64,000 nucleotides of DNA, taken from an uncultured Phycisphaerales bacterium (GTDB lineage Bacteria; Planctomycetota; Phycisphaerae; Tepidisphaerales; Tepidisphaeraceae). The stretch covers positions 3,488,001 through 3,552,000 of the forward strand of contig CAVWLP010000002.1 in assembly GCA_963755915.1 (NCBI GenBank). Reading direction: 5' to 3'. A model generated the notes under the pieces. The model was not told the DNA's origin. It worked only from the letters and a program-made list of their open reading frames with translations, and did no database searches. This document shows, in pieces, positions 17,170 to 64,000 of the stretch. Each line of letters starts with the position of its first letter. Positions within the stretch are counted from its first letter, which is position 1. Both the position numbers and the translations under genes were made by a program.

Positions 17170-18395
17170 CCCCAAAATCCCCCCGACGACCATCGGGGGG
17201 CCTCCCACAAAAACCCGAGCCCGCCGCGCGACCCCCATCCCCCAACCGACTCCCATACCAAAGCTGTGGGGTGCTCGCACCCACAGAAACACCCCGGAAC
17301 CCACAACTCCTCCCATACTCGCGCACAAAATGGGGAAGCGCGATTCAAAGACATCCTCTCTCCCTGTGTAGCCGCCCCCGCCTGACTTCGGTGAGCTGTG
17401 TCGAACCGCGGGGCGCGTCTTTCGATGTCCACAAATCGCAGTCCCTCATTTTGCACTCCCACCAATTCTTCAATCTCCCAAACACGATCGGTCAGCCCTC
17501 ACGTCGCGCCTCTTCCGCATGACGCGCTATGCCGCTCCCCTTCACACGCCTGATCGTCGCCTCTCAAATTTCCCCGGAATTCGGTGGTGGGTCAGTTTGA
17601 AATTAAATTCTATTTTTGCGCAATCGAGATAAGCACGCGAGGATTAAATCAATTAACGACGCAACCCATGCGAACATTAGGATCGTGCCAATCGGTGCGA
17701 GGATCAACCCTTCTTCGGAACCACCAAGTATCATCAGGCTCGCCAACAGAACAATGGCGACCAGGCCGCACGAAAAGAGGATGAAACATTTCAAAGGCCC
17801 GCTTACGGAGGAGCGCGGACCGTGAGGAGGAGGAGAAGGAGGAGGAGGAGAGCGATAGTCGAGCGGATTAATCTCCGGCATTCCCCCAAATACTAATCGG
17901 TCAACCCCACCAATTCTTCAAGCTCCCGAGTGTAATTGGCCGGCGCGCATTGCTATCGCACATGCCCCTTTTTACCCCTCGCCCGGTACTCCGGGAGAGG
18001 GTTGGGGGTGAGGGTCTTCAGCATTTTTCACTCTACACGCGATTGCTCCGGGTCAACCCGCCCGCACCGCTACCGTGACGCGAAGCCCGCGGTGAATCCG
18101 GCAGCAGTTGCAGTGCATGAAGTGAAGCGCAACCATCGCCGCATGATCCTCGATTTATTTTGAAAAGGCATTCGTCAGGTGCGCAAATCGCCGTATCAAC
18201 ATCCCCATGACCAAATTAACGCGCTCAAAGGCAAAACACCCTTCCCCCCAAAGCCCCCCGATGGCCATCGGGGGCCTCCCACAAAAAACCTCCGCTCCGT
18301 CACGCGACACCAGTTCCCCACCGCGCCCCCATACCAAAGCTGTGGGACTTCGGCGAGCTCAGTCGAGCCGTGCTCGCACCCACAGAAATCCCCAC
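17170..18395. repeat. Two copies of a ~125-bp composite intergenic repeat (17170-17295 and 18247-18392)
   Basis: ccccccga.g.ccatcgggggcctcccacaaaaa...cccataccaaagctgtggg..tgctcgcacccacagaaa is present in both. Confidence 0.8.
17603..17881 (-). CDS. Small two-TM cassette protein with N-terminal P-L-D-Y motif
   Basis: MPEINPLDYRSPPPP followed by two hydrophobic helices; the stop abuts an IS1 IR. Confidence 0.7.
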   Translation of the reverse strand: MPEINPLDYRSPPPPSPPPHGPRSSVSGPLKCFILFSCGLVAIVLLASLMILGGSEEGLILAPIGTILMFAWVASLIDLILACLSRLRKNRI

Positions 18396-18528
18396 CCTGC
18401 ACCTAAAGATTTCAGCCCCCCGGAACGCCCACGGACTTCGGTGAGCTCAGTCGAACCGCGCTGCCGTGAGAAATTTCCAAATGCCCTCACCGACCGAAAT
18501 TGACCCGCCGCGCAAATTTCGGTTGTGG

Positions 18529-19155
18529 TCAATTAGAAATCGATTCCTTTTTCGAAGGAATCGTTCCGCATTCCGGACATCGCTCCGGCGTAGCGCGCAC
18601 GTCGTAGCCGCAGTTTACGCATTGGCCCAACGCCCCGCGCTGCCGTCTTCGCCGAATCCCGATGATTGCCACTACTGATGGGTACAACGAAAGCCCTATC
18701 AAGAACCAGTGCGGTACCGACACCGTGTCGATTCGGGAACTTTCAAATCCATTCCAGGGAAAGTCATCGCGCTCCCAATGAAACCCTATTCGATTCCAAA
18801 TCAGACTCGCGAAAGGCCCAAAAGCAGGTCCAGACTCATGATGGAAACCAGGATTGCTATCATATGGCATCAGGGCGAGACCAGGCTCAACATCGTTGCT
18901 GAGCGACAGAAAAGGAGGAAACGGATTTGAACCCGGCGGAGACGAAAACTGCATCGGCTCGTACTCGACCAAAATGCAGCCTCGGTTTGACTCCAATATA
19001 TAATTGGTCCAACGAGTTCCTCCGACATCGTGCGTGGGGTAACTTAGCTCGTCGAACCGCCAATAACTCCGCGCCCAGAAAGCCGCCGCCAGCACACTAA
19101 CTCCCAGTGACAACAACGCGAGCGCAGCTAACGACCATTGGTGATGCCGTCTCAT
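18529..19155 (-). CDS. Two-TM membrane protein with C-terminal zinc ribbon (CxxCGYDVRATPERCPECG)
   Basis: MRR..SL...FWARSY..VPHWFL..RRRR..CVNCGYD; ends ISN*, read from a degenerate IR. Confidence 0.85.
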   Translation of the reverse strand: MRRHHQWSLAALALLSLGVSVLAAAFWARSYWRFDELSYPTHDVGGTRWTNYILESNRGCILVEYEPMQFSSPPGSNPFPPFLSLSNDVEPGLALMPYDSNPGFHHESGPAFGPFASLIWNRIGFHWERDDFPWNGFESSRIDTVSVPHWFLIGLSLYPSVVAIIGIRRRRQRGALGQCVNCGYDVRATPERCPECGTIPSKKESISN

Positions 19156-19269
19156 CGAATGGGATTGTACCGCGTCTCAGTCGATCAGCTTCAGCAAATC
19201 CTCAATCTCCCAAACCGTATTAGATTGGCCAGTGGCCGGAATTCGAAAGTAGGTCAGTTTGAAATAAAA

Positions 19270-19788
19270 TTACTCTTTCGACAGTATTGTCCCGCATTCC
19301 GGGCAACGGTCGGGTGTGGCGCGTAGGTCGTAGCCACAAGAGGAACACATGCTTTGCACCTTAGTTCGCCGACGCCAAAACGAAATCGCAAATATCGCCG
19401 GAAAAACCGCCAGTAAAAGAGAAATGAACCAATCGGGGGTCTGCAAATGATAAAAGACGGAGGGAGCGGCTTTTGGAAAATAAGCGTCTGTTTGAATGAG
19501 TCGCTGGTAACGAAATCCCGAATCTCCCAGATTCGACTTTATCAATCTCGCTAGATCGGTGTCCCATCGCTCGTGTCGCCAATAGAAGCTATACCCGGCA
19601 GATCTATCGAGAATGTCGAAGTTCATCGAAACGAGCCCCAAATTGCTGCGAGCGACGATTTGATAATTTCCTTCCTTTCTGACCAGCATGTCCCAGCGCA
19701 GGTAACTGCGAATCCACAAAGCAATCATCGCAACGCACAGCACCAACGAGCCCGTCGCAATCGTATTGAATAACCGCCGCCGCTTCAT
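19270..19788 (-). CDS. Two-TM membrane protein with C-terminal zinc ribbon
   Basis: [43 protein letters not shown]. Confidence 0.85.
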   Translation of the reverse strand: MKRRRLFNTIATGSLVLCVAMIALWIRSYLRWDMLVRKEGNYQIVARSNLGLVSMNFDILDRSAGYSFYWRHERWDTDLARLIKSNLGDSGFRYQRLIQTDAYFPKAAPSVFYHLQTPDWFISLLLAVFPAIFAISFWRRRTKVQSMCSSCGYDLRATPDRCPECGTILSKE

Positions 19789-19887
19789 TTGCGGGAATTG
19801 TACCGCCCCTCAGTCGATCGTCCCCACCAATTCCTCAAGCTCACAAACATGATCGGCCAGCACCGCCGGTAGCGGGTCAGTTTCAAA

Positions 19888-20205
19888 TTATTTCGTGTTT
19901 TCTGTGAGTTTTGGAAGCGAGCGTAGACCTCTAACCAACTTCCAGGCACGCCAGATTACATAAAGAAATATCGCGATGCCGCAAAGCAGAAAACGCCACC
20001 CTAGTTCTTCGAAATGTTCCTTCTGAGGTTTCAGCGGGGTCGTGGAGGCAGCCCCAAAGTAATCCAGAGCGCCTAGGAGCAACCAAAACCCTATGAAAAA
20101 CGGAATCGACAGTAAAATCGCTTTTACGACGGGATAATGATTGTCATCGCGCCGTGTCGTATCTGGCGAGGCATAAGAAAGTGGTTCCATTGGCTTGTCT
20201 GCCAC
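19888..20205 (-). CDS. Small two-TM cassette protein with P-L-S-Y motif
   Basis: MADKPMEPLSYASP followed by two TM helices; the stop abuts an IR. Confidence 0.7.
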   Translation of the reverse strand: MADKPMEPLSYASPDTTRRDDNHYPVVKAILLSIPFFIGFWLLLGALDYFGAASTTPLKPQKEHFEELGWRFLLCGIAIFLYVIWRAWKLVRGLRSLPKLTENTK

Positions 20206-20375
20206 ACCTCAAAATACTACCGCAAAAGCCCCACCAATTCCCCGATCCACCAAACATCATTAATGCAGCCGTCACGTCACGCCTCTTCCGCTTGACGCGC
20301 TATGCGGCTCGCGATCACACGCCGGATTGTCGCCTGTCAAGTTTCTCCGGATTCCGGTAGTGGGTCAGTTTGAAA

Positions 20376-20786
20376 TTAAATAGTTTTTTCGACGGTTTTT
20401 CCGCATTCGGGGCAACGGTCCGGCGTGGTGCGGAGGTCGTAGCCACAGTCTCGACATGAGCCCGGAAGAATACGAGTAGCTTGCGCTTCACGGTATCGCA
20501 ACACGACCCAGCAGAGGGGGAGTGTTATCGTCGAAATGAAGGCTATACCAACCGGAATGCGCCATCCCAATGCGGGGAAGAATGGCCGAACGTGGGCAAG
20601 CGACGTGTCTTGATAGGTGAATACCCAGACGCCGTTCACATCGGTCGTTGTCATGGTTGTAGGAAGTGGCGGAGGCAAAGCGACAGGGCGTCTGAAGATA
20701 TAAACCCTATCGTAGACGAGGCCCACAAAGAGCAACAACGAAATGGCCGCAAGCCCGTTGAATACTTGTCGGCGGAAGCGTTTCAT
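20376..20786 (-). CDS. Two-TM membrane protein with C-terminal zinc ribbon
   Basis: [38 protein letters not shown]. Confidence 0.85.
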   Translation of the reverse strand: MKRFRRQVFNGLAAISLLLFVGLVYDRVYIFRRPVALPPPLPTTMTTTDVNGVWVFTYQDTSLAHVRPFFPALGWRIPVGIAFISTITLPLCWVVLRYREAQATRILPGSCRDCGYDLRTTPDRCPECGKTVEKTI

Positions 20787-20807
20787 CGCCGGAAATTGTA
20801 CCGCGCT

Positions 20808-20950
20808 TCAGTCAATCAGCTTCAGTAATTCCTCAATCTCCCAAACATGGTCGGCCAGCCCCGCCTGCATTGCTGGCGTCACGCGAAGCGTCTGCTGAAC
20901 CCGACAGTAATTGTAGTACATGAAGTGCAGGGCAACTTGCGCCGCGTGAT
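20808..20950 (-). pseudogene. Orphan IS1-family transposase C-terminal fragment
   Basis: NHAAQVALHFMYYNYCRVQQTLRVTPAMQAGLADHVWEIEELLKLID*, matching the C-terminus of the 57420 transposase. Confidence 0.85.
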
Positions 20951-21518
20951 TCAGTTCGCGGCAATCTCCTTTTTCGGCGGTGGGATGGTCCCGCACTCAG
21001 GGCAACGGTCGGGCGTGGGCGCAGATCGTAGCCGCAGTTGTGGCATATCCCGATGTGGCCTTTTTGTCTTCGCCTCAAAAACGCATAAAACCACCACGTT
21101 GGAGGTACAAGGAGTGCGATGAGTAGAAACCACAGCGGCACGATTAAATGATACTCCGTCGTTCCGTCAAACACCTTGACTACGCCGATTGCGAACCGAG
21201 ATCCCCTCAATCCGGACCATCCGCCGAGCGATTCCGCGCTAAAACCCTGGATGCCGTCTCCCGACTCCCAAGCAGTCGGACCGAATCCCCAGTGGCGGAA
21301 ATATCGCGGCAAGCCATACTCAGTCGCAATTTGTAGCGCGATTTGGCCGCCGCCTGTTCCAATAGTAACCCACTCAGGTCTAAAATGGGGGCTCACAATC
21401 GAAAAGCTAAAACTGTCGAAGTGGCTCACCGCGCCAACCAAAGCAACCCTACTCCGCCACTAAGCAGTAGCGAAACCATCGCCAGGCGGCGCAACATACG
21501 TTGGCCAAACCGTGTCAC
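20951..21518 (-). CDS. Two-TM membrane protein with C-terminal zinc ribbon (two apparent frameshifts)
   Basis: GTG start 6 nt after TATAAT; ..[37 protein letters not shown]. Confidence 0.75.
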
Positions 21519-50821: not shown

Positions 50822-50977
50822 CCACGATTTATATAGAGAGTTACAGGGGGGCGCTCTGACCGTGTGCCTTTAGTGTGCCAAAATCTGCACGGGATGGATT
50901 GTCGGCACACTCAGTCGCGTAATCTTTGCACAGACATTGTAGGCAGGAAATCGCCCATGGATGGAGCGCAGGTGCGG

Positions 50978-51333: not shown

Positions 51334-51404
51334 TGTTCAGTCCCCCATTTGTTCCACGACATTGCGGCACTCGCACCGAATGACCGATGCGAGAGCCGGA
51401 AAGT

Positions 51405-52277: not shown

Positions 52278-52291
52278 TGCATTTCCTCCAG

Positions 52292-52537
52292 TTAGGACAA
52301 CTTGACTCCAATTTGTTCCTGTACCCATTCGACAATGCACGAATCACAGGCTTGGACGTGACAACCACCGATGGTGCTTCCCGCCGTAATCTGGTCGCAT
52401 ATTCGGCAGTGTGTTGAATCGTGCTGATTGACGATCCGCATTTGTTCCGCGAATTCAGTGTTTTGCCTCGCGATCAATTCCGCCTCGATTGCGGCTGCGT
52501 CGGCTAGAAATCCCGCGTGTGCTGTTTCGTGTTGCAT
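52292..52537 (-). CDS. Small hypothetical protein with CxxC pairs
   Basis: HCRIC...ACDSC; RBS ggagg. Confidence 0.5.
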   Translation of the reverse strand: MQHETAHAGFLADAAAIEAELIARQNTEFAEQMRIVNQHDSTHCRICDQITAGSTIGGCHVQACDSCIVEWVQEQIGVKLS

Positions 52538-53002
52538 TTGACCCTCCGTTGTTTGTGGTAATTGCAAGACAGATATGCAACACAATTCGTCCGTAGTCAA
52601 ACATGTATTGCGATTATTTAGTTAACAATCATTCGTGCGCGGTGTGTCAGCGGGGCGATTGTTTGGGTGGGGTCCAACCTTGCCCATGACCATGCCGGGT
52701 GGGGCTGGAATCCGATAGTCGAAAAACGGATACGCAAATTCCAAAAATGACTTTCAGTCGGACATTCGGCAGACACAAACGTAGCCTACTCATCCCGGTA
52801 GGCATCGAATCCATTTTTAGACCCCCACCCCGTCGGAATCTGACTCGCAAAATAAATATGCGAAATTTTGGGGCTGTTATCTCACATTGCCGTCAGACGT
52901 GACATTCAATTCACGCAAGCTCGATTACGGGAGATTGAGGATTTGCTGAAGTTGATTGACTGAGGCGTGGTAGGATACGGAGCCATTAAACGCCACCACC
53001 CA

Positions 53003-53470
53003 ATGTTGATGTTGCTTATGTCATTTGCGATGGCATTCATCTTCGCAATCGCATGGGTCATCGTCATGACGTTGACATTGCCCGCGACGGATGAAATGCA
53101 TGGACAGATGCCCTTTGCAGACCCGCTTGTCTTTCCGATCATGTCAATTGGGGCATCAATAAGCGCTGTTCTCACCTTTCCATTCTTTTACTTTTCCCTG
53201 CGCGACCGTCCGCTAAATACATCCGTTTGGATAGTCGTTGGGACTGTGCTGGGAGAAATCGTAATCGTTGTTCCAGTAAACGCGGCAATGGGGCTTCTAG
53301 GATCATTTTTGGCGTTCGGCATCGGAATATATCTAGCCAGGAAATTCACCAAATCCATGATATCCGCAGGCCATTGCGTTAAATGTGGCTACGACCTCCG
53401 GGCCACGCCCGACCGTTGCCCGGAATGCGGGACAATCCCGCCGCCGAAAAAAGAAATCACCGCAACATGA
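53003..53470 (+). CDS. Four-TM membrane protein with C-terminal zinc ribbon
   Basis: ..[31 protein letters not shown]. Confidence 0.8.
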
Positions 53471-53634
53471 AGTATTCCCACAACGTCGCGTTGCGTTTCA
53501 CGCACCTCAACTATCGCCGGATTCACCAGACGCTTCGCGTCACGCCAGCCATGCAAGCCGGGCTGGCCGATCATGTTTGGGAGCTTGAGGAATTGGTGAA
53601 TCTGATCGGCTAAAGTGCGTTATGATTACAGGCA

Positions 53635-54178
53635 ATGAAACGCTTGCACAAATTGCCACTCAAGGCTGCTGTGGCGATATCGCTGGCTTTGAATATAGCA
53701 TGTGTTGCGGCATACGTTTTCGGCGGAGCAAACCGACATATAACATTCGGTGACGCAACGCGCGGCTCTAAAAGTCAATATGACTTTGAGGTTGACCACA
53801 AAGCGTTCACCGTTAGCAAAAAAATTGGAATTGACCACATCCCGGCGGGCGCACGGTTTCGGACAAAAGAACCGGTTCTCCGTACAATTAGACGATTGGT
53901 ATATCTTTACGAATTGGCACGTCGGAAGTGAAATTGCCGGAGAGTATCCGGATGAAGATAGAGGCATCCACCTAATTTCCGCCCGCGTGCCCTTGTGGTG
54001 GCCTCTAATTCTAACAACGATACTACCCTTTGGTTGGATGACCTCATCGGTTCTCCGGCGACGCCGCGCCAGACCGGGCCATTGCACTTCTTGCGGCTAC
54101 GATCTCCGCGCCACGCCCGACCGATGCCCGGAATGCGGGACAATCCCGCCGCCGAAAAAAGAAATCACCGCAACATGA
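53635..54178 (+). CDS. Two-TM membrane protein with zinc ribbon (one frameshift)
   Basis: [47 protein letters not shown]. Confidence 0.8.
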
Positions 54179-54339
54179 AGTATTCCCACAACGTCGCGTT
54201 GCGTTTCACGCACCTCAACTATCGCCGGATTCACCGGACGCTTCGCGTCACGCCAGCCATGCAAGCCGGGCTGGCCGATCATGTTTGGGAGCTTGAGGAA
54301 TTGGCGGGGCTGATCGGCTGAGCGCGGTACAATTCCGCA

Positions 54340-54836
54340 GTGAATCGGTTCTGCCGATGGCTACTCAACGGGCTCGCCGTAGCATCATCGCTCTTGTGCT
54401 TGGCGTCCGTCTTTGCTTGGGTTAGCAGCTATCACGCCGAAAAGAGCTTTGCGCTGCCTTTCGGCGCTGGTCCGTATTGACATTTGCAAATGGCGATATG
54501 GAAGGCTTCTGGACTGGTCCTGATTCTCGATTCGACAGCTTCAGCGGCGGCTTCAGGATAAGTCATTATGAATCTTTTGTTGGCAGTCTGGATGGACGGA
54601 CAAGAGGTCCCGAATATCCCGGCGTCGCGTATTGGTCTTGGGTAATACATGACTGGTTCATCGTGACCGTACTCATAGCGCCAGCAGTGGGCTTATTTAT
54701 CCATCGTTTCCTTGCAAAGAGAATCACATCAGATGGTTTTTGTTTTCAGTGCGGCTACGACCTTCGGGCCACGCCCGATCGATGCCCGGAATGCGGGACA
54801 ATCCCGCCGCCGAAAAAAGAAATCACCGCAACATGA
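54340..54836 (+). CDS. Two-TM membrane protein with zinc ribbon (one frameshift)
   Basis: GTG start, [49 protein letters not shown]. Confidence 0.8.
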
Positions 54837-54967
54837 AGTATTCCCACAACGTCGCGTTGCGTTTCACGCACCTCAACTATCGCCGGATTCACCAGACGCT
54901 TCGCGTCACGCCAGCCATGCAAGCCGGGCTGGCCGATCATGTTTGGGAGCTTGAGGAATTGGTGGGG

Positions 54968-55327
54968 CTAATGAACTGAGGAAGCAGACATTGTTTCAAT
55001 GAACCGCGCGACAAACTTTCTTTCATCGCTAAGTGTTGCTCCCCTCACTTTCGCTCGCAGTTGATTTATTTCCCAAACGACCGATTGTTCAATCGGAGAA
55101 TCCAGTTTAAGCCGCAATGCAAGGATTTCCTTCTCCAACCATTCAAGACGCGCCGCCTCTTTATCTCGCCAATGTTTGCCAGCGAAAGCTCCCCTGGGAC
55201 GGAGCGCCCGTATAGCGGCTCTGGAAAACTGGCCGTCAAGGCAAGCCCGGAAGGCGGCGATGGCCGTGTCTCGGTATTCACCCTCCATTTGTTCAAGCCG
55301 TTTTAATAGCCGGTCGGCCTTGGCCAT
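54968..55327 (-). CDS. Hypothetical IS passenger protein
   Basis: 119-aa ORF between the last tail and the IR. Confidence 0.6.
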   Translation of the reverse strand: MAKADRLLKRLEQMEGEYRDTAIAAFRACLDGQFSRAAIRALRPRGAFAGKHWRDKEAARLEWLEKEILALRLKLDSPIEQSVVWEINQLRAKVRGATLSDERKFVARFIETMSASSVH

Positions 55328-55462
55328 GATATGCCCCTGTTGTCCACCACCGGCATTCTAACTGATTCTGTGATTATTTTTCAAACTGACCCACTACCCG
55401 AAATCGGGTATTGGTATATTCTGGAGCCATCGAAAAATAAATCTTTGCGGTAGAATCCCGGC

Positions 55463-55675
55463 ATGAAAAAGCCGAAGCGCTATGACGTTGCCCAAACCGC
55501 CAAACGGATCGTTGACCAGACCATAGCTGAGCATGAGAAGCCCCTCCCGCCCGGCATAGAGGCGGCATGGGAAGAGTGGTCGCGAGGCATAGGGAAAGTC
55601 GATGCGAGGGGCATGTTGCTGCTCAGGGCAGCGTTTGATGTGGGGGTGAAGGCGGCAACGCGAGAAAGCAAATAA
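55463..55675 (+). CDS. Small protein at the IS left end, resembling the N-terminus of the 62865 protein
   Basis: YDVAQTAKRIVDQTI versus RDPNQLAKMIVDMAT. Confidence 0.6.
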   Translation: MKKPKRYDVAQTAKRIVDQTIAEHEKPLPPGIEAAWEEWSRGIGKVDARGMLLLRAAFDVGVKAATRESK

Positions 55676-55681
55676 GCGGCA

Positions 55682-56811
55682 TTATTTTTCTGCGTGCCGA
55701 TATTTGTTTACTTCCGGTTCGATGGAATTCCAGGTAGCGATTATCTTGTTGAAGTGATTTGCCAATATGCCGTCTTTGTCTAGGGCGGCAAATGCTTTCA
55801 TCTTTCCATCTACACCGCCGTTCGTAATTTCCATCAGGGCATTTCTTCCGTGAACGATTGCGTATCCGATAACGTCCCTAATTGCTCGCGAGTGTGCCTC
55901 GCCGTCCGTGTACCGAGCAAATTGGCAGACAGTGTCGAAAGCCCGTGTCGCCCGACGTTCTGGTGGAGGGTGCGTGGAACCATCTAGGTCGTTCGGATCA
56001 ATCCCCTCAGCGAACATCCAAAACATGATGAGTACGGCAAAGGCCCAATCGAACACTATTAGGACAGTCGGGCTGACAATATGATCGCCCCTTTGGAGTA
56101 AAGGACGAACATTTTGTTCGTAATGTGTAGGATGCTGAAGGCCGCGCATAAAACTGGTGATGGCGGCATACCCGTCGGTGCTCGTTTCGATGCTTGCATC
56201 TTGAGGTTATCAGCGGCCTTCGATCCCTTCGCGTAAAGCTCCATGAGGAATGGTAGATTGTTTTTGGCCGCATATTCGGCGTGACCAAACGTGATGTGTG
56301 CCAGTTCATGGTAGACCAAAAATTCAACCGCGTGTTCCGCAAGCAATTCGGCGTAGCGTTTTCGACCGGGGTCTATGGGAGCCATTTCGGCCAATGATTC
56401 GCCCGTGCGCCGTCCGCTTAATAACAAGGTTTCATAGTTACTCCAAAGTCCGGGGAGGCTTCGCGCTGTCTCCACCGTAGCGTCACCTGTGGTGCCCATC
56501 GCTTTCGGATGTGCCATTATTCTGTAAAACGTGTCGTATAGCAGCGGCACGGTAGCAGTGAAAATGCCAATGATTCCCGTATGTGATGGGCGGTCGTATC
56601 CGGCATTGAGGTTGAAATCCGGGTTCTCAACATAGCCAAATTCGATCTGCGGCATTTGCGTATTACGGGCATTAATATGCCCCTGAATGAGCCTCTCTGC
56701 TTCCTTCAGGTTTAACGTGCGCAGGTCGTTCGCGGCTGTGTCGTGTGTGCTTGGATCGGGCTTTTGCAGTGGAGCAAACGCCTGATCGAAGATTTCTTTT
56801 GGGGTTGGCAT
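55682..56811 (-). CDS. Passenger HExxH metallopeptidase-like protein (frameshift near 56150)
   Basis: EFLVYHELAHITFGH; ..E..AD region. Confidence 0.6.
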
Positions 56812-56841
56812 TTCGCCACTTCGTTATTTACAAGGAGTCTA

Positions 56842-57135
56842 ATGACCACTGCTGAGTTTTCTGATTTGGAATTACGAATTGCCATTGCAAAATCGCTGCC
56901 GTTTGCTTGGAAGAATATTCACATGCAGGACGGCAACGTGGTTGGCTGGGTTCAGGGAGGAATCTCAGAGCGCCCGATCTCCATTCCGCACTGGACCCGC
57001 AGTTTGGCGGACGCGAGGTTTTTGGAAGAAATGATGCTGTCTCGCTTCCCAAAACAGTATTCATTGGGCCTCCATTCCTTGGGCGTTCGTGTTGGCGCGG
57101 CTTCCCGCGCCAAATTTGCGAAGCCGCACTTATGA
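56842..57135 (+). CDS. Hypothetical passenger protein
   Basis: RBS aaggag; IPHWTRSLADA motif. Confidence 0.5.
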   Translation: MTTAEFSDLELRIAIAKSLPFAWKNIHMQDGNVVGWVQGGISERPISIPHWTRSLADARFLEEMMLSRFPKQYSLGLHSLGVRVGAASRAKFAKPHL

Positions 57136-57339
57136 CTTTGCAGTCGTCCGCTTCCCCGGCTTAGCCTTTTTGTTCAGCTTGTCTTCAGCAAACCCCAACA
57201 GAAGCGGCCTAGCCCAAGTTGCAACGTCCGCCCCGTCCGCAGCAGCGGCCTCAGAAACAATTTTCTTCTGCTCCTCTGTAAGCGGAATCCGCAACTCTTC
57301 GCTTTTCCGCTCCGACGGGTCTTTGTGTGGTCTTGCCAT
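57130..57339 (-). CDS. Ribbon-helix-helix-like regulator divergent from the transposase
   Basis: MARPHK....LRIPLTEEQK..V.EAA...G.DVATWAR. Confidence 0.7.
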   Translation of the reverse strand: MARPHKDPSERKSEELRIPLTEEQKKIVSEAAAADGADVATWARPLLLGFAEDKLNKKAKPGKRTTAKS

Positions 57340-57422
57340 GCTGATTATTATAGCAATAAAAATCTGAGTCGTCAAGGATTTTCCTTTACTCATTGATTAC
57401 TATTGCTATAATAATCAGCATG
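57337..57422. promoter_or_regulatory. Symmetric divergent leaderless promoters (perfect 22-bp inverted repeat)
   Basis: catgctgattattatagcaata at 57337-57358 and tattgctataataatcagcatg at 57401-57422. Confidence 0.85.
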
Positions 57423-58169
57423 TACAAACTGACCACGAATGAGCGGGCGCAAATCCTTGCGGCTCTGGTTGAAGGCGTCAGCATCGCCTCTATCTGCCGC
57501 ATGTACGGCGTGAACAAAATCACTGTGCTCCGGCTACTGGCCGACGCCGGAACGCTCGCCGCTCAATATCACGATTTGACCGTTTGCGACATTAAATCGC
57601 GACGAATTCAATGTGACGAAATTTGGGCATTCGTGGGAGCGAAACAGCGCAATGTTCCCGAAGAAAGTCGCGGTCAATTTGGTCGTGGCGATTGTTGGAC
57701 TTGGGTTGGCATTGACGCGGACAGCAAGCTTGTCGTCTCCTATATGCTCGGCCTGCGTGACGGCGGATACGCCAAGGACTTCATGTGCGATCTGGCCAGC
57801 CGACTTGCCAACAAGGTTCAGTTGACCACCGATGGCCTCAGCGTCTATCTGGACGCGGTTGACGATGCCTTTGGCGGCGACATTGACTATGCCCAGCTTG
57901 TGAAGATTTACGGCCCCACAAAGGCCGATCCGGGCCGCTACAGCCCGCCGCAAGTCATCGGCGCTGTAAAAGAGACGGTATGTGGTTCACCACAACCGCG
58001 CCACGTTTCCACCAGCTATATCGAACGCCAGAACTTGACGGTTCGAATGGGCAATCGGCGCTTTACCCGTCTGACAAACGCGTATTCAAAAAAAGTCGAG
58101 AACCATGGCCACATGGTTGCGCTGCAATACTTCCATTACAACTTCTGCCGCATTCACATGACTATTGAA
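57420..58169 (+). pseudogene. IS1-family DDE transposase, 5' part (interrupted; the 3' part resumes at 62628)
   Basis: HTH, QCDEIW, WTWVGID, TTDG, STSYIERQN, RRFTRLTNAYSKK and YNFCRIHMTIE. Confidence 0.9.
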
Positions 58170-58638
58170 TGGCGATTTGCCATATGGAGCCGCGGCGACA
58201 TACGGATTCACTGTAACGGACTCGGCGGGCACTTGCAGAGGTAGTACCAACTCAACTTGCACTGGAAATAAAGCCACAGGTAATGGTAATGGCCAGATTG
58301 AAGGTAACTTTAATGGTGGAATCGATCTATCGCGCATTTCCAATATGGGAACGGCCAGCAACCTCTGGCACGCAGGTGGGAGAAAGGCGAGGGAGGCAGG
58401 TGCGGTCACAGATAGCAACCGCGTGCTGTGACTCAGTCGTCGTCAGCCATTCAGATGATAGGCGCCTGGGAGCGAAAAGAAATCAAAAACTCCCCGGGCG
58501 ACCGATGTTTCACTGGCGTGTCAGTACGGACGTTACTGCCATCGGATGATTCGGGCGTTGCTGAGGAAAGAAAGATTCGTTGTGTGGGCGATATGTGGAG
58601 TGCACTCCAGACACCGCGCACCTAAGCTTTGCATCCAT

Positions 58639-60867
58639 TCATCTTCTCCTCCGCCGCGCCAGCGCTCCGAGACCGGCCATTGCGAACAGTCCCAGGCAGG
58701 CCGGCTCGGGTACCGCGCCAATCATGGGCAAAGGCAAGCCGTTGGCGATGGCAAACGCGTCCAACGCCGTGATATCTGCCGTGGATACGCTTGTATCTGC
58801 ACTGCTGTCGCCCTGCCCGAAGTTGGTGGCGAGGGCGGAGAAGTCGGAGCCGTTCACGGATGAGCTGAAGAGGAAATTCCCCTGGTCCCAGTTGGTGACG
58901 CCTTTGCCGAAATTGGCGGCGAGGATGCTGAAATCGCTTCCGTTGACAGTGCCGTCGAGATTGGCGTCGCCGAGAAGCGTGTACTTCAATTCGATCTCAC
59001 CCGACGGCAGTCCGGAGACGATTTTGTCCGCGCCGTCGGCGAAGCCGACGCCGTAGTGGAGGCCGTTGGTGAGAGACTGGGCGTTGGAGGAGATGATGCC
59101 TGGGCCGTTCCAGTTTCCCCCGTTGTAGCCGCTCTTGATGTAGCCGGCGATTGAGGAGATTGGATCGCTTCCCGAGCCGTAATCGATGAATAGATGGGTG
59201 TTAGTCAGGTCCAGCGTCGCGCTGATGCTCAACGACGCAAGAGTCTGAACCGAGTGAATCTGCACTGTTCCCCCGGTAATTGCAACGGGGCCGGTTGGAT
59301 CAAGGGTAGCGCCCATATTAAAGACCGATGTTCCACCGGTGAAGTTCACCGCGCCCGCGCCGCCGAGCGTGCTGGTAGCGGTAAAGGTATGTCCGCCGGA
59401 CAAGTTTAATGCCGCTCCGCCGCTGACGGTGAAACCGCCCGATTGACTGCCTCCTCCTGTCAGTGAAAGTGTCCCGGTCTGGACGTTTACCTGGCCACTG
59501 TTGTTGAATTCCGTTTCCATGGTCGTCGTGCCGGTGCCGACCGATTTTGTGAAGGTGCCAGCATTATTGAATACGTCAGGGACAGTGGAGGTTGAGCCGC
59601 GTCCATCGTAAGTATTGTTCCCTTGTAGGTTGAAATTCGCGCCCGATAAATTGTTGAAGGTGGTGTTCTGGCCAGATTTATTATTGCCTTGCGCCTCAAT
59701 GTTGCCGCTGGTCCAATTGGCCGTAGCGGAATTATTGATTGTGGCCTCGGGGCTCAAAACCGGTGACCCGCTAAAGGAGATGCCGCCGTTGGCGGTGAGG
59801 GTCTGGGTGTTGGTGCCACTGCCGAAGGTTCCGCCGGTCCAGGTGAAAGTCCCACTGGTAGTGATTGTGTCCGAGCCGGCGAGGGTGCCACCGCTGAGCG
59901 CGAGGGCTACGAGGCTATCGGTTTGGCCCGTGTTGAAGTTAACCACCGCAGCGATGCCAATTGCAGTGTTCCCGGCGCTGTCGCCGGAGCCGGTGTTAAA
60001 GTTGTTGGTTCCACCAATGAACTGAACAGTACCGGACCCGCCAATGCTGCTGCCCGTAAAGCTAAAGGTTCCCTGCTCGTATAGCTCGAGAACTGCTCCG
60101 CCACTGATCGTAAAATCGCCCGTTGCGCTACCTCCTCCATCAAGGTACAACGTCCCATTTTGCACGTTCACCTGACCGGTATTGTTAAATTCGGAGGTGA
60201 TGATCGTCGTCCCGGTTTCGGGGGACTCGGTAAATGTTCCGGCATTGTTGAAAACGTCGGGATTTCCGGCGGTCGAACCGTTTCCGCCGTAGGTGCCATT
60301 GCCCGGTATTGTTACATTGAAGTTGGCGCCGGCTAGATTGTTGAAAATGGCGGCACCCTCGCCGCCGCTGTTGCCGGTGCTAATGCTGCCGCTCTTCCAA
60401 GTGCTTGTGCCGGAACTGTTGAGTGTTGCGCCGTCAAATAAGAATTCGTTCATGCCATTGAAGTTAACCCCGCCGACATTCACCGTAATTTGGTCGTTCA
60501 ACCCATCTCCAACCTCGCCACCAGACCAGTTAAAGACACCATTAACCGCCAACGTACCCGGCGTCGATGCACTCTCGGGCACAATGGCGCCGCCGGCCAT
60601 GCTAAGCCCATCAATGGTTGGATTTACGCCTAGCGTGATCGACGGAGCCCCATCGGGAATGGAGACCGTGTAGAGTGAGCCGGGTGGATTACTGTTGTCG
60701 GGATAATATGGATAACTGGACCAATCGTTGGCGTCAGACCAACTGCCCGAGATGCCGCTGATCCATTCTGCGGACTGGCCGCGTGCGGAATTTTGAAATC
60801 CGCTAACCAGCCCAAATCCAATAACCGCCAGTACCAGAGCGCACGTGCGATTGACGGGCTTAAACAT
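58639..60867 (-). CDS. Large beta-strand-repeat surface protein with dockerin-like domain and PEP-CTERM
   Basis: Signal peptide; repeated FNNAGTFT / FNN.GQVNVQ.GTL; LLGDANLDG; VPEPACLGL..RRRR. Confidence 0.88.
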   Translation of the reverse strand: MFKPVNRTCALVLAVIGFGLVSGFQNSARGQSAEWISGISGSWSDANDWSSYPYYPDNSNPPGSLYTVSIPDGAPSITLGVNPTIDGLSMAGGAIVPESASTPGTLAVNGVFNWSGGEVGDGLNDQITVNVGGVNFNGMNEFLFDGATLNSSGTSTWKSGSISTGNSGGEGAAIFNNLAGANFNVTIPGNGTYGGNGSTAGNPDVFNNAGTFTESPETGTTIITSEFNNTGQVNVQNGTLYLDGGGSATGDFTISGGAVLELYEQGTFSFTGSSIGGSGTVQFIGGTNNFNTGSGDSAGNTAIGIAAVVNFNTGQTDSLVALALSGGTLAGSDTITTSGTFTWTGGTFGSGTNTQTLTANGGISFSGSPVLSPEATINNSATANWTSGNIEAQGNNKSGQNTTFNNLSGANFNLQGNNTYDGRGSTSTVPDVFNNAGTFTKSVGTGTTTMETEFNNSGQVNVQTGTLSLTGGGSQSGGFTVSGGAALNLSGGHTFTATSTLGGAGAVNFTGGTSVFNMGATLDPTGPVAITGGTVQIHSVQTLASLSISATLDLTNTHLFIDYGSGSDPISSIAGYIKSGYNGGNWNGPGIISSNAQSLTNGLHYGVGFADGADKIVSGLPSGEIELKYTLLGDANLDGTVNGSDFSILAANFGKGVTNWDQGNFLFSSSVNGSDFSALATNFGQGDSSADTSVSTADITALDAFAIANGLPLPMIGAVPEPACLGLFAMAGLGALARRRRR

Positions 60868-60945
60868 CTCCCCTCCCTTTTTGAAGACGTGGTGGCTCCT
60901 TCGATTGCTAATGTTTTTCTATAAGGTCCGGAAAAACTCGCTTAT

Positions 60946-62627
60946 CCGGGATTTCCCATATGACACTCCGCCCACGAACGTCGCCGGCAATTTTGCGTAG
61001 CATACCCAAGTCAGGAGCGAGGATCAAGTGTTTTCTTGGCTCCCCACCGTCGCAATCCCGAAGATTTGTACGGCCTTCCCCTTCATTTTGTCACTTCCGG
61101 CAGGCTTTTCGATGCCCTGCGAACAGACTGCCACCGTTGCCCCAAACATTTCGCAAGCTTTTCACGCTGTCCGTTGTCATCCCGATGCCGCCATCGGCGA
61201 GTCGAAGTCGCCGGATTCTTGCCAGGATCAGCCGGAACAACTCGCGGGGAACCGCCACCTCCGCCATCTGGAACACCACCGACCGGGCGTGATGCACCAC
61301 TTTCGCCCCGATCTTGATCAGTTTCTCCCGCAGCGTGGTCAGCGACCAGTGCTTTACGCCAACGGGCAACGCCAATCGCCGCAGGAAGTTCCCCAGGTTG
61401 TAGGCCAGGGCGAACAGTTGCAGCCGCACCTGATTGTCGGCGAAGTCGTGGCAACTCAGCCGCGTCCAGTTCACCGCATTCTTGCCTTCCTTGATCCACT
61501 GCTCCGCCGTTCCGCGACCGTTGTAAAACCACACCACGCTGGCGGCTCCGCCGCCCAGGTTGGTGACGATGAAGCCGACGCGGGGAAACAATTCGCCCTG
61601 ATGCCACTCGACCTTGGCCACGACACGACGGGCCTTGTCCCAACTGGCGGCCTGATACATGAAGTCGTGATACCAGCACGATGGGCTTCTTCGGCGGGCG
61701 ACCCGACCGGGCGCTTCAGCAGGTGCTCGATTTCCCGCTCCAGCAGGCTGTTGGACTTCAGGCGGATCGCATAGCCGTAATCTTCGGCTTCCAGAAACAG
61801 ATACAACTCGGGAATGGCGAATGCCGCATCACCGCGAAAGAACTTCTTCACCGTCGTTGTTCGATAGCGGGCGACCACCGGCTCCAGCACCGATCGCCAG
61901 TCATCGGCACTATGGACATTGCCGTTGCGAAGCAGGGCGCGTTCCAGGTCTCCATCCTGATTGAAACAGAACAACGGATGGTAGCAGGTGCATTCAAAGT
62001 GGCCGTTGTACGCCGAGCCTTCCTGATGGCCGTGCGTCTCGCTCACCGAGCTATCCATATCGAGGATGATCCGGTCGCCGGGCTTGCGCTGCCGCAACCC
62101 GTCGATCCATTGCCCGGACAGGTCGGTCAGGACTTTCAGATTGCCTGGCTGCGTCAGCACGTCGGTCTCAAACCGGCCCATCTGGCTGGTGGAGGCGGCG
62201 GTGCGTTCCCTGGCTCTCCCGCCCACGACCTGCCGCATCGTCGGATCAACCGCCAATCGTTCGGCATCATTGGTATCCTCGTAACCGGCCAGGCGGCTGT
62301 AGATCGACTGACGCAAAAGCCCCACCAAAGTGTGCTGGATGTTCTTTCCGGTGCGCCAATCCTGGAGCAGCGTGCCGGCCATTGTCGTCAAGCCCAGCGC
62401 CTCATCCAGTTCCCGGTAGACCAGCAATCCCGCGTCGCTGGTCACTCTTCGAGCCGTGGAATTCGAGCTTCAAACTGCCGTCAAAACCCACCCGAAGAGC
62501 GTCCTTGCTGCTTTCACCCATTGGATTCTCCGGACTTCATGTCCTGAATGTCGAAAAAGAGCCTGATTTGTGCGGCCAAACGACAAACCACTATACGTGA
62601 AGTCCACTGCCATCTGGCAAATCCGGG
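60946..62627 (-). mobile_element. IS1380-family insertion sequence
   Basis: IRL cccggatttgccagatg (read on the minus strand from 62627) and IRR ccgggatttcccatatg at 60946. Confidence 0.88.
61091..62521 (-). CDS. IS1380-family transposase (frameshifted)
   Basis: [50 protein letters not shown] and LIKIGAKVV. Confidence 0.92.
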
Positions 62628-62776
62628 TTGAAACAACGCCAGCGGTAAAGGCAGGCATCGCCGACAAGGTTTGGACGATGGTTGATTTTGTGAAGATGCT
62701 GGAGCGTGAAGAGGGCTTGCTTGGCGGTCGGTTGACGAACTACAAGCCGAATGTTCCGAAAAAACGGGCATATTGA
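62628..62776 (+). pseudogene. IS1-family transposase, 3' part
   Basis: ETTPAVKAGIADKVWTMVDFVKML..., in frame with 57420-58169 once the insertion is removed. Confidence 0.88.
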
Positions 62777-62864
62777 GAATATACCAATACCCGAAATCGG
62801 GTAGTGGGTCAGTTTGATTCCTCGAAAGTTTGACGCCAAACGCAACTTGTGGCAAGGTTCATCC

Positions 62865-63101
62865 ATGCTTAAACGATCAAGAATGCCCCGCGATCCTAAC
62901 CAGCTTGCCAAGATGATCGTCGATATGGCCACGGGGAACGCCCCAGCCGAACCCGCTGGCCCGGCGAAGAATCCGGCGGCGGTCGCGCTGGGAAAGCTGG
63001 GGGGACCAAAGGGCGGCACTGCAAGGGCAAAGGCGCTATCGCCTAAGCGGCGGAAAGAGATTGCCAAAAAGGCGGCGGCGAAGCGGTGGGGAAAGGCTTA
63101 A
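62865..63101 (+). CDS. Small basic protein of the type found beside IS1/IS1595-like transposases (often labelled histone H1-like)
   Basis: PRDPNQLAK.IVD.ATG..KNPAAVALGKLGG.KGG.ARA..LS...RKEIAKKAA.KRW. Confidence 0.8.
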   Translation: MLKRSRMPRDPNQLAKMIVDMATGNAPAEPAGPAKNPAAVALGKLGGPKGGTARAKALSPKRRKEIAKKAAAKRWGKA

Positions 63102-64000
63102 TCGCGAACAATCCTCATTCGCACCCCATCACTGCTCCAAGCCGGGGCATCCGCATCTGCAAGCATCTGAGCAACATCTCGCTCTGTTACGAACAATAGG
63201 TCTGCCAAATCCTGACGAGAATACCCGGCTTCAATATGTTTGCGTAATAGATCACTAAAAACCCTGGGGGTCTCCCCCTCGATCGCCACCGGTTCGGTTT
63301 TCCGCCAACCCTTTCGCGACAATTGAACAAATATTGATTCGTAACGCCGGTCATCAATGGCACCGATCGCTTTTGCGCGAAATGCGATCGCCTGCATTGA
63401 CACCCGCCATTTCCGTTTCAAGGTTGCCAAATCCGCCAAGGCGATTCCCGGACGAACATCACGCCGAAAGTCCTTTTCGGGCATCAAAAAAGCCGACGCA
63501 AACGCGTTGGCTTCGCGCTCTGCATCCTCCGGCCTCCGATCCTTTCCAAAGTGCATTACTGTATGCCCCAATTCGTGCGCGAGACTGAATCGTGTTCTAT
63601 CTGCGGGCTTTGCTCCGTTTAAAAAGAACAGCTTGGGCAATTCGGGCACCCATCGACAAAGCGCATCAATTTCCTCAACTTCGAGATGGCGGTCGATAAC
63701 GATTCCACCATGCGCCTCTATCCGTTCAACTAAATTCGGCAACGGGCCAGGCGGTATGTTCATTGCCACGCGGGCCATCGCAGCGACTTTCTCGACATCA
63801 CCCGCTTGGTTTTCGGGATCAATTTCCGGAATTCTGTCCGGTGCGATTTCGGTTAATCGTAGAAGGCGATCAATCTGGATATCAACGATGCTGCATCGGG
63901 CATGCACCGCCTTCACATGAGAACGCTTCGCGCAGAGAGGGCCCGATGGTAGAAATCGGACATGCTGGCCAGCCTTCGCGGTCGATCAACGAAGAAGAGA
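63098..64000 (-). CDS. ImmA/IrrE family metallopeptidase (5' part outside the window or frameshifted)
   Basis: RFSLAHELGH, EREANAFASAFLMP and LKRKWRVSMQAI. Confidence 0.88.

Follow-up and report, generated by a model that had tools for sequence, protein, structure and literature searches.

The window, as we call the whole 64,000-nucleotide stretch analysed here, carries a row of three genes in one orientation, separated by remnants of a transposase gene and closed by an inverted repeat (Table 1). The array products are predicted to be small proteins of the inner membrane whose C-terminal C4 zinc ribbon (ZnR) is cytoplasmic. The body of gene 1 is a member of a family with four transmembrane segments (4-TM) that also exists without the zinc ribbon. 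Its full-length homologues (49–75% identity) include proteins without the ribbon, and its own DZR match is weak and below the cutoff. In three other MAGs its homologues stand alone as ordinary genes, and the 4 kb around them hold no IS remnant. Genes 2 and 3, of an N-terminal-anchor type, have this anchor and the C-terminal ribbon in common. The bodies are not all homologous; the first-pass annotation of this DNA had likewise called them unrelated. No nucleotide match beyond short family motifs was found between the three bodies or between them and the 6.6-Mb genome. As protein queries they were found in 0 of 40 relatives, and in a DNA search of the relatives the matches were limited to the conserved ribbon and tail parts. 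The 119-aa ORF at the right of the array has no family match and no second copy in the genome, and a promoter-like site is directed inward from the right inverted repeat (IRR).

Table 1. Features of the array and its surroundings, in window coordinates.
Feature	Position	Strand	Description
Older, more decayed array	17460..21039	-	Array of the same kind; IRR copies and pieces of transposase tail lie between the ZnR genes
Upstream tail remnant	52929..52963	+	35 nt, IS1-family transposase 3′ end (...WEIEDLLKLID*), just 5′ of gene 1
Gene 1	52967..53470	+	ORF; multi-pass (~4 TM) membrane protein, C-terminal zinc ribbon; hydrophobic segments
Repeat copies (243 nt)	53369-53611; 54077-54319 (94%); 54735-54977 (93%)		Spacing 708 and 658
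Repeat core R1	53417..53596	+	Last 18 codons of gene 1 including stop, then transposase tail remnant
Tail remnant 1	53485..53613	+	H N V A L R F T H L N Y R R I H Q T L R V T P A M Q A G L A D H V W E L E E L V N L I G *
Gene 2	53635..54178	+	N-terminal anchor, variable middle, second hydrophobic stretch, zinc ribbon
Repeat core R2	54125..54304	+	Sole difference G54236
Gene 3	54340..54836	+	Family-typical N-terminus MNRFCRWLLNGLAV...; variable middle, TM2, zinc ribbon
Repeat core R3	54783..54962	+	Identical to R1
119-aa ORF	54968..55327	-	Between last tail remnant and IRR
IRR_A	55380..55398	-	TTCAAACTGACCCACTACC on + strand; right inverted repeat of the IS1-like element ending the array
Octamer CGAAATCG	55399..55406	.	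First of three direct copies
IS_C	55407..62791	+	7.4-kb IS1-like transporter IS, 16-bp inverted repeats GGTATTGGTATATTCT
IS_B, left part	62800..64000	+	Whole element G000:C2:3550800-3554413, intact

A search of the window for direct repeats returned one family, three copies of 243 nt. The first-pass annotation had described three near-identical 180-bp direct repeats with dissimilar stretches of ~480–530 bp between them, each repeat combining the 3′ end of a zinc-ribbon gene with a 3′ remnant of an IS1-family transposase, in an array that closes at an IS inverted repeat. This description was accurate, and the DNA between the repeats is unique. The cores differ at 1, 0 and 1 of 180 positions in the three pairs (179–180/180 identical), and the alignment of the three copies has a single variable position, A53528/G54236/A54894. 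On the left flank (35 nt) the three pairs have 6, 5 and 6 mismatches, and on the right flank (18 nt), where the tail ends differ by 33–50%, they have 6, 9 and 6. Evenly spread mismatches would give this pattern of core and flank with a probability of 2e-7 to 1e-9. In the 33 nt 5′ of the core each pair of genes differs at 4 positions, judged by eye to be synonymous since the three peptides are identical there; in these 33 nt the three genes are at least as distant from one another as from unlinked paralogues, and ~12% of the silent sites immediately 5′ of the core differ. The ends of the identity block agree within ~3 nt in all three pairs, a coincidence that the copying of a discrete unit fits more easily than two independent conversion tracts.

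With 0–1 mismatches per 180 positions in the cores and bodies without mutual nucleotide match, the earlier argument that homogenised repeats beside differing bodies contradict simple tandem duplication followed by drift holds good. A version in which one ancestral gene was duplicated in tandem, its bodies diversified by selection and its 3′ end and spacer conserved by selection would suit the shared anchor and ribbon of genes 2 and 3 and the conserved ends and variable middles of arrays in relatives. Yet ~125 of the 180 identical nucleotides are non-coding transposase remnant, both the silent sites just upstream and the tail ends beyond the core have diverged, and the body of gene 1 comes from the different, 4-TM family. 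The block pattern disfavours this explanation, the 180 nt have no Rfam match (no RNA family at E ≤ 0.1 in a search of 52000-56000), and we hold it to be very improbable. The 180-bp block was also considered as a mobile element of its own (a MITE) and rejected; it has neither inverted repeats at its ends nor duplications, and the homology of its diverged copies extends into their flanks. A −10 box had been proposed at the end of each repeat, which a consensus promoter scan did not bear out (2 sites against 2.3 expected, none at repeat ends); a conserved GGTACAAT follows repeat 2 only. Terminator-like sites were not found (3.9 expected in shuffles).

The assembly was checked against independent short-read contigs from four soil-metagenome runs, some of which may be the source sample. 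The junctions from body 1 to core, core to body 2, body 2 to core and body 3 to core are reproduced without differences in contigs. Four contig stretches (52928-53574, 53545-53751, 54031-54235 and 54729-54925) show 0 differences, and one unitig begins exactly at 53417, at ~2–3x the depth of its flanks. Gene 2, split over two frames in the window, regains a 181-aa frame through a 2-nt insertion after 53848 that is present in the contigs of 3 of the 4 runs, and gene 3 becomes a single 165-aa frame with a 1-nt insertion after 54462 (one contig, X3). The two frameshifts are indel errors of this assembly, which mimic pseudogenes and deserve a flag. Assembly or polishing could have produced a false order of units or a false identity of cores, as might be suspected from these indels, from an estimated completeness of 81% for a 3-contig genome and from the array being spanned by no single contig of the four runs (the passages from core to body 3 and from core to the sequence after the array are not bridged). 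The exact agreement of the four stretches, the raised depth of the unitig at the core start and the coincidence of the single R2 difference with a contig end at 54235 speak against such an artefact, which is scarcely credible. The joints 53436→52929, 53430→55379/55382 and 54150→55379, candidates for circles or alternative junctions, were set aside as explained by paralogous loci: the joint that goes back 508 and those that skip match C2:3507179-3507290, C2:1389301 and C2:3508376 of the same genome. Contig depth was only 2–9x; in run X3 the gene 1 stretch was without cover, and in X1 depth differed between genes.

Only ~45 codons of transposase are left between the array genes. Tail remnant 1 aligns with the C-terminus of full-length transposase copies and is 88% identical in nucleotides to the IS_B tail and to that at C2:1388981, and the upstream remnant matches the tail ends of other copies at 84–94% (blastn). 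The different endings, ...EDLLKLID* upstream versus ...EELV(N/G)L(I/M)(G/N)* in the repeat tails, indicate that at least two transposase lineages contributed. At the joint in the array, the tail sequence, from about residue 240 on, comes immediately after the ZnR stop codon. This joint occurs seven times in the genome (three in the array and four elsewhere, 75–86% between loci) and again in a congeneric genome (79%). No recognisable IRR lies between the ZnR stop and the tail (11/21 positions match, by eye), and the joint may have originated from a decayed IRR (21 nt after GAAATC) or from an illegitimate deletion. The C-terminal extension of the ZnR protein (IPPPKKEI...) may be transposase sequence read in another frame.

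IS_B is an intact element, in which the left inverted repeat (IRL) is followed by IrrE-like/HTH cargo on the − strand, the transposase, 21 nt, a ZnR gene and the IRR. The IRR starts right after the ZnR stop codon, and the 8-bp duplication is CGAAATCG. The cargo 5′ of the transposase comprises an IrrE-like protein (PF06114, 71.6 bits) and other ORFs. The ZnR body of IS_B found itself alone at E ≤ 1e-5 among 1224 candidates, and in the Atlas its matches were Planctomycetota clusters only, without names. The transposase copy in the window matches Pfam DDE_Tnp_IS1 (PF03400) at 31.5 bits against a cutoff of 24.1; its membership of the IS1 family is distant, since the same protein scores 52.5 against NCBIfam NF033558, below the equivalog cutoff of 100. 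The genome has 9 transposase loci. Two complete 2448-bp elements are 99.8% identical and have inverted repeats, different 8-bp duplications and cargo ORFs. The inverted repeats of the elements are of the types GGTACTGG..., GGTAGTGG... and GGTATTGG..., and the 8-bp target duplications are CAATATTA, about AATCGCC(G), and CGAAATCG. These inverted-repeat types and transposases may belong to the ISMhu11 group of IS1. The IS1 family has target duplications of 8–9 bp and ends of the form GGnnnTG.

To the right of the array, the elements are piled up in the order IRR_A / CGAAATCG / IS_C / CGAAATCG / IS_B / CGAAATCG, where the second copy of the octamer is at 62792-62799 and the third immediately follows IS_B, outside the window. 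IS_C has its transposase at 57393-58244; among its cargo are a 742-aa protein and a DDE_Tnp_1_4 transposase with a frameshift. The element sits precisely between IRR_A and IRL_B. Two elements entered the same octamer abutting IRR_A, a clean natural example of target reuse by two insertions into the same 8 bp beside an IS end. An intact IRR–8 bp–IRL joint is present in another genus (G081). The flanks of IRR_A and IRL_B were also considered as the halves of a palindromic target (a circle captured by an IS dimer); the supposed halves are the 16-bp inverted repeats of IS_C, and the idea was dropped. At C2:1389281 (residue 183) and C2:3507868, IRRs adjoin transposase-internal sequence. No IRL to match IRR_A was found within 4 mismatches between positions 20374 and 55380 of the window.

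A ZnR frame lies directly 3′ of the transposase in 4 of 24 transposase loci from 9 genomes, two other genera (L043, L048) included, and of the genome's 32 ZnR frames of the C-terminal type, 15 touch a tail remnant or an inverted repeat. These arrangements indicate that the ZnR genes of this genome and of the bacterial family to which it belongs are passengers of IS1-like transporter IS (tIS) with the order IRL–cargo–transposase–ZnR–IRR. Arrays of [transposase tail–ZnR] units are found at at least four other loci in the genome and its relatives, and an older, more decayed one of this kind lies in the same window (Table 1). The perfect 180-bp block must be a local event, since the repeats of the other arrays are only 75–93% identical. 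A 682-bp module (tail end, ZnR and IRR) recurs at C2:2031306 and C3:1340802 with 91.5% identity, and neither place has a full transposase.

The first-pass annotation had envisaged an undescribed integron-like system, with variable gene bodies exchanged between constant, dedicated recombination anchors. The repeat proves to be the junction of passenger gene and transposase tail of an IS1-family tIS. As a rule such anchors do not stay constant: the four further copies of the junction in this genome have 75–86% identity, the two in the C3 array are only 85.6% alike, and the repeats of arrays in relatives, where conserved ends and a variable middle recur, are at 78–93%. Such divergence of the repeats had itself been named beforehand as telling against the integron-like view. 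Like integron cassette arrays, the locus presents a one-directional row of small unrelated genes with a recurring element between them, and a gene for a tyrosine recombinase (49376-50821), which might use the 180-bp repeat as its site, lies 2.1 kb upstream. Unlike them, it is without attC-like folding, integron integrase and attI/Pc, and what recurs in it is a coding stretch joined to transposase debris, with diverged homologous copies elsewhere. The recombinase is a generic Phage_integrase, scoring 48.5 bits on TIGR02249 (cutoff 265) and 34.8 on NF011946 (cutoff 435); an ArdC-like gene stands between it and the array, and arrays of the same kind elsewhere do not lie beside such an integrase, as judged from the feature map alone. 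An attC-like hairpin was sought in the 180-nt repeat and rejected: as single-stranded DNA it folds no better than shuffles (z −1.20 on the + strand, with 29/200 shuffles folding as well, and −1.10 on the − strand, with 27/200). The repeat search returned no inverted repeat inside the array units. Site-specific cassette exchange by a dedicated recombinase is very improbable.

The array is better accounted for by repeated transposon insertion, by deletion and by the local copying of sequence than by a new integron-like cassette system. The array is probably a pile-up of 3′ modules of IS1-family tIS, shaped by local copying. In the element of this lineage, the ZnR gene begins ~20 nt after the transposase stop and ends at or inside the IRR. 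The IS1-like transposase would act on the predicted GGTAGTGGG... ends, and the elements would favour resident copies as targets, landing at or inside them. Deletions would afterwards remove the IRL and most of the transposase to give [transposase tail–ZnR gene] units in a row, with a single IRR remaining at the right end of the array. The joint of ZnR stop and tail would have arisen once, long ago, and be found now at several loci, whereas the 180-bp stretch over the joint would have been made identical in the three units recently, by homologous recombination. Gene conversion and unequal exchange are its likely forms, with putative end points in the two islands conserved best, TGCCCGGAATGCGG and GATCATGTTTGGGAGCTTGAGGAATTGG. 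Gene conversion between conserved sequence islands appears the most likely source of the perfect block, and these homology islands may account for its coincident ends. The sequence directly shows what each part is, the intact element with its target duplication, the reuse of one octamer beside IRR_A, the older and diverged paralogous arrays and the sharp block of identity, whereas the order of the events, the deletion of the transposase 5′ parts and gene conversion as the homogenising step are what we infer from these end products. To the left of this array, as of the other arrays, there is no IRL and there are no transposase 5′ fragments, so that the insertion history of the three units is unreadable from the sequence.

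The units might also be swapped or amplified at present, with the repeats as portable homology, either through RecA-mediated [repeat + gene] circles that re-integrate or through mobilisation of [tail–ZnR–IRR] in trans by the IS1-like transposase. Such a process would be akin to the translocatable units of IS26 or to mobile insertion cassettes and would make the array a working, transposon-built library of variable membrane proteins. Perfect identity over 180 bp suffices for homologous recombination, non-homologous bodies stand between the same anchors, and the genes are intact once the read-supported indels are counted; the shared 682-bp module and the recurrence of conserved-end, variable-middle arrays in relatives agree with exchange as well. 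We nonetheless consider it unlikely: no second locus holds a close copy of any body, the contigs hold no circle or alternative junction beyond the paralogous loci, the units are without a left inverted repeat, and the other arrays are not homogenised. It is a tentative proposition, with an outside chance of being correct, that IS1-family tIS of this Phycisphaerae lineage build gene arrays in which the tail/ribbon joints are anchors to amplify, convert and swap single genes. If so, the elements would carry a hypervariable ZnR family, target the octamer next to a resident IRR and lose their transposase; a transposon would have made, and recombination would maintain, a library of membrane proteins whose outer parts vary.

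Insertion sequences with passenger genes are known as tIS in the IS1595/IS1 group (PMC3129680 and PMC7986276, citing Siguier, Gagnevin & Chandler 2009). As far as these accounts describe them, tIS resemble the present elements in the IS1-family DDE transposase, the terminal inverted repeats, the 8-bp target duplication and the non-transposition genes inside; they differ in that the passenger here is a zinc-ribbon membrane protein with its stop codon at or in the IRR, and in that 3′ modules accumulate as arrays. Our literature search found neither ZnR cargo nor this array layout described for IS elements. IS26-type arrays form by tandem amplification (IS-gene-IS-gene-IS) and through translocatable units (PMC7986276). 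In the features given there, they are alike in that unrelated genes alternate with identical IS-derived direct repeats and new units enter beside a resident IS. Unlike theirs, the repeat here is a 130–180-bp remnant rather than a whole active IS, the family is IS1 and not IS6, and neither a circular unit nor a conservative targeted reaction is in evidence. Nor are there complete direct IS copies between the passengers, as in IS26-like pseudo-compound structures; the array units also carry no inverted repeat on either side, whereas MITEs and mobile insertion cassettes have both on the unit.

Deletions adjacent to an IS and recombination between IS copies are described in PMC11708052. Within what is given there, the likeness lies in IS ends joined to neighbouring or internal sequence without target duplications, as at C2:1389281; the difference is that here such deletions are deduced from end products and that the array joint has no clear IRR. 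Tandem gene families undergo concerted evolution by gene conversion. The sharply bounded identity block in old paralogues, with homology islands at its bounds, is of this kind, but the tract here consists of a gene end and non-coding IS debris, not of a selected coding region. An apparent new cassette system would in this way come down to a tIS, insertion beside resident copies, deletion and gene conversion, and a false lead would be removed. The analysis also ties to a transposon a large gene family of Planctomycetota that lacks annotation and encodes small membrane proteins with a ribbon at the C-terminus. The ZnR family, with ~32 copies in the genome and hundreds of public relatives, all labelled "hypothetical", travels as IS1-like cargo and is multiplied in arrays by IS1-like elements; such carriage may explain part of its expansion and of its pattern of conserved ends and variable middles.

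The array consists of three zinc-ribbon membrane-protein (ZnR) genes, each with a body of its own. A repeat search of the window gave a single family with three copies of 243 nt, starting at 53369, 54077 and 54735 (spacing 708 and 658), within which alignment showed 180 nt, the core, to be identical (53417-53596, 54125-54304, 54783-54962) except for G54236 in the second copy. Pairwise mismatches outside the core numbered 5-6 in the 35 nt leftward and 6-9 in the 18 nt rightward; if mismatches were evenly spread, so clean a core would have p = 2e-7 to 1e-9. The first-pass annotation had described three near-identical direct repeats, each encoding a 17-residue ZnR end and then a transposase C-terminus, separated by dissimilar DNA and closed by an inverted repeat, and these features were confirmed. 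The intervening bodies have no nucleotide similarity to one another or to the rest of the 6.63-Mb genome, except that body 3 opens with a short motif of the family, and the closing repeat, IRR_A, occupies 55380-55398.

The transposase behind the tails is of the IS1 family (PF03400, 31.5 bits against a cutoff of 24.1; NF033558, 52.5, under the cutoff of 100), and the genome has nine loci of IS1-family transposase. In IS_B, a complete IS1-like element to the right of the array, the left inverted repeat (IRL) is followed by some 2.2 kb of opposite-strand cargo, among it an IrrE-like peptidase (PF06114), and then by the transposase. Its ZnR gene, of 177 aa, starts after a further 21 nt, and the right inverted repeat (IRR) directly abuts the ZnR stop codon. 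The gap between the tail stop and the ATG of gene 2 is likewise 21 nt. Given this order and the matching spacing, the ZnR gene is a passenger gene of an IS1-family element, and the hybrid repeat consists of the 3' end of a ZnR gene and, fused to it, the last ~45 transposase codons. Another complete IS1-like element, of 2448 bp, is likely to be active and carries as cargo two small opposite-strand ORFs, one HTH-like by eye.

Rows of tail-ZnR units recur at five further places in the genome (see table), with several kinds of joint between successive genes. The joint of the present array (stop codon, then tail from about residue 240, no clear IRR) occurs seven times, and the joint ZnR-IRR-octamer-~95-nt spacer-tail end four times. 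Elsewhere (C2:1389281 and C2:3507868) the IRR is joined straight to an internal part of the transposase, at residue 183 and near residue 262 respectively. Adjacent deletions are the standard route joining IS ends to neighbouring sequence, according to the available text of PMC11708052. Of 24 other genomes of the family, 23 yielded the conserved parts (ribbon and tail); 16 genomes from other families of the class yielded none. In three relatives (G001, G011, G012) such units likewise stand in rows, and in two other genera (L043, L048) an IRR-closed ZnR frame lies directly 3' of the transposase end. A ZnR gene follows directly at 4 of the 24 transposase loci, those loci coming from 9 of 26 genomes. 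The relatives' tallies take in the unpublished genome G014 (L021, L033, L041, L045), on which alone no claim is made. The array at 17460-21039 alternates ZnR genes with IRR copies, octamer plus ~95-nt conserved spacer, and tail fragments; in one of its ZnR frames the ribbon motif is interrupted by a gap of 1 nt.

The seven joint copies are 75-86% identical between loci (two in the C3 array, 85.6%), the copy of a congeneric genome stands at 79%, and repeats inside relatives' arrays at 78-93%. The joint itself is old. Since its copies have diverged in other loci, arrays and relatives, near-perfect identity is special to this array. The 33 nt left of the core, coding for 11 residues, carry four differences per gene pair, synonymous by eye and leaving the peptides identical; over this stretch the array genes are no closer to one another than to unlinked paralogues, the nearest of which differ at 2-3 positions. 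To the right, the last six tail codons are a third to a half different in sequence. With diverged flanks around an identical core, the three units are thus old and different, and the insert that they share is young; its edges lie in TGCCCGGAATGCGG on the left and ...GGGAGCTTGAGGAATTGG on the right, the two best-conserved stretches among all copies. We infer that the homogenising step was gene conversion or unequal exchange, which would have been resolved in these two conserved islands. The donor of the identical block would have lain inside the array, because no copy outside it is closer than 88%. The conversion reading is weakest where the block edges are concerned, which nearly coincide in all three pairs.

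The alternation of variable bodies and constant repeats had been taken in the first-pass annotation for an undescribed integron-like cassette system. The single-stranded fold of the repeat was no better than that of shuffles (z -1.2 and -1.1), and the repeat region had no Rfam match. The 481-aa tyrosine recombinase at 49376-50821 scored far under the integron-integrase cutoffs (48.5 against 265; 34.8 against 435); next to an ArdC-like gene, it has more the look of a component of an integrated mobile element. Contig joints hinting at circles (53436->52929 and others) were matched by paralogous loci of the same genome. With the diverged repeats elsewhere, these results leave a dedicated cassette system highly improbable. 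A weaker form of the first-pass idea is rather unlikely: single genes would continue to be amplified or exchanged, with the repeats as anchors of homology, or tail-ZnR-IRR modules would be mobilised in trans. A 682-bp module common to two loci at 91.5%, neither with a full transposase, and the recurring pattern of conserved ends and variable middle are compatible with this reading and do not demonstrate it. The region upstream of the array looks like an integrated mobile element; the window has no tRNA gene.

The window, G000:C2:3488001-3552000, belongs to an assembly of three contigs with an estimated completeness of 81%. Logan contigs of four soil-metagenome runs, some of which may be the source sample, were compared with 52600-55420. 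One unitig has its start at precisely 53417 and a depth of 10, compared with 3-7 alongside. As no contig of the four runs spans the whole array and some runs are possibly the source sample, support for the assembly is piecemeal only (see table). Contigs of three of the four runs have an extra 'GC' after 53848, and one run has an extra 'G' after 54462, the others having no listed contig there. With these letters gene 2 becomes a single 181-aa frame and gene 3 a single 165-aa frame, so the apparent frameshifts are assembly errors or strain variants. All three array genes are probably intact, and the assembly may hold many further indels that mimic pseudogenes.

Coordinates of the array, its neighbours and related loci (bare numbers are window positions)
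Feature	Position	Strand	Remarks
ArdC-like antirestriction/zincin protein	51405-52340	-	
102-aa ORF	within 49376-52600		just upstream of array
Tail remnant of another lineage	just before gene 1		35 nt; ...EDLLKLID*
Contig cover, 0 differences	52928-53574		gene 1 into core
Contig cover, 0 differences	53545-53751		core into gene 2
Contig cover, 0 differences	54031-54235		gene 2 into second core; stops one base short of sole variant position
Contig cover, 0 differences	54729-54925		gene 3 into third core
Tail stop, first unit	53611-53613		gene 2 ATG at 53635
IRR_A	ends 55398		…CCCACTACC, then CGAAATCG
IS_C, 7.4 kb	55407-62791		16-bp IRs GGTATTGGTATATTCT (left), AGAATATACCAATACC (right); duplication CGAAATCG
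NikA-like small ORF	57130-57393		
IS1-type transposase of IS_C	57393-58244		
742-aa cargo protein of IS_C	58639-60867	-	PEP-CTERM-like tail (own reading; no Pfam match)
DDE_Tnp_1_4 transposase, IS_C cargo	61091-62445	-	frameshifted
IRL_B	from 62800		GGTAGTGGG…; CGAAATCG again after IS_B
IS_B	C2:3550800-3554413 (from 62800)		IRs GGTAGTGGGTCAGTTTGA(T/A); duplication CGAAATCG
IS1-like element, 2448 bp	C2:1476044-1478489, C2:2155901-2158349		two copies, 99.8% identical; IRs GGTACTGGTTCAGTTTGAA; different 8-bp duplications
Tail-ZnR row	C2:3505.4-3509.0k (17.4-21.0 kb; 17460-21039)	-	second, older array
Tail-ZnR row	C3:1338.9-1342.0k		
Tail-ZnR row	C2:1624.6-1626.1k		
Tail-ZnR row	C2:1388.6-1389.9k		
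Tail-ZnR row	C2:2030.2-2033.7k		
L068, head-to-tail joint of two IS1-like elements	G081:C2:1171794-1174833		IRR - GAGATGGC - IRL; another genus of family

The motif C..CGY.L...C.ECG is present in 42 open frames of the genome, at the C-terminal end of frames of at least 89 aa in 32 (own count from the frame table). At the N-terminus, most of these 32 have basic residues and then a hydrophobic anchor (type MKRFxRWxFNxLxxxSLxLC...W.RSY); a middle of variable sequence comes next, then another hydrophobic segment, arginines and finally the ribbon. Of the 32, 15 touch a tail remnant or inverted repeat by our count. From the charge distribution, the N-terminus and ribbon are predicted to be cytoplasmic and the variable middle outside. 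Gene 1 is a member of a 4-TM family; its full-length relatives share 49-75% identity with it, and the ribbon is missing from some of them. Since its body is known among public proteins (P0006-P0012) both with and without the C-terminal ribbon, the ribbon behaves as a module joined to unrelated membrane bodies. Three other Planctomycetota/Phycisphaerae MAGs have homologues of gene 1 that stand alone, the surrounding 4 kb being free of IS remnants. A search of 40 relatives yielded neither the body of gene 2 nor that of gene 3, and for the IS_B passenger body none of 1224 candidates was a relative at E <= 1e-5. Public annotation of the whole ZnR family is 'hypothetical', some matches being labelled Tepidisphaeraceae.

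The array is real and unusual-looking, and it reduces to known processes. By the available text of the sources, it comes nearest in kind to the transporter IS of the IS1/IS1595 group (PMC3129680, PMC7986276); for the alternation of different genes with identical direct repeats derived from an IS, the nearest analogue is the IS26 array (PMC7986276). Our literature search returned no IS1-family element with zinc-ribbon membrane-protein cargo, nor rows of its 3' modules.

To the right of the array, these elements have piled up at one another's ends. IS_C is a third IS1-like element, a transporter IS bounded by 16-bp inverted repeats similar to GGTAGTGGTATACTCT, which is present at the ends of two other copies. 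As the octamer CGAAATCG stands in three direct copies, one 8-bp target served two insertions, both times beside an IS end. Similar near-palindromic octamers (CGAAATCG, CCGGAATTC and the like) flank 9 of 13 GGTAGTGGG-type inverted repeats in our own genome-wide reading. Among 120 other genomes of the family, one (G081) yielded an intact IRR-8 bp-IRL joint; most of the 120 are short-read MAGs, where such repeats rarely assemble. A near-palindromic octamer lies 3' of most IRRs, in four places with a conserved ~95-nt spacer with AAACTTGACA next, which may belong to the element or be a favoured target. The C-terminus of the IS_C transposase departs from its family after ...CRIHMTI, possibly through another indel.
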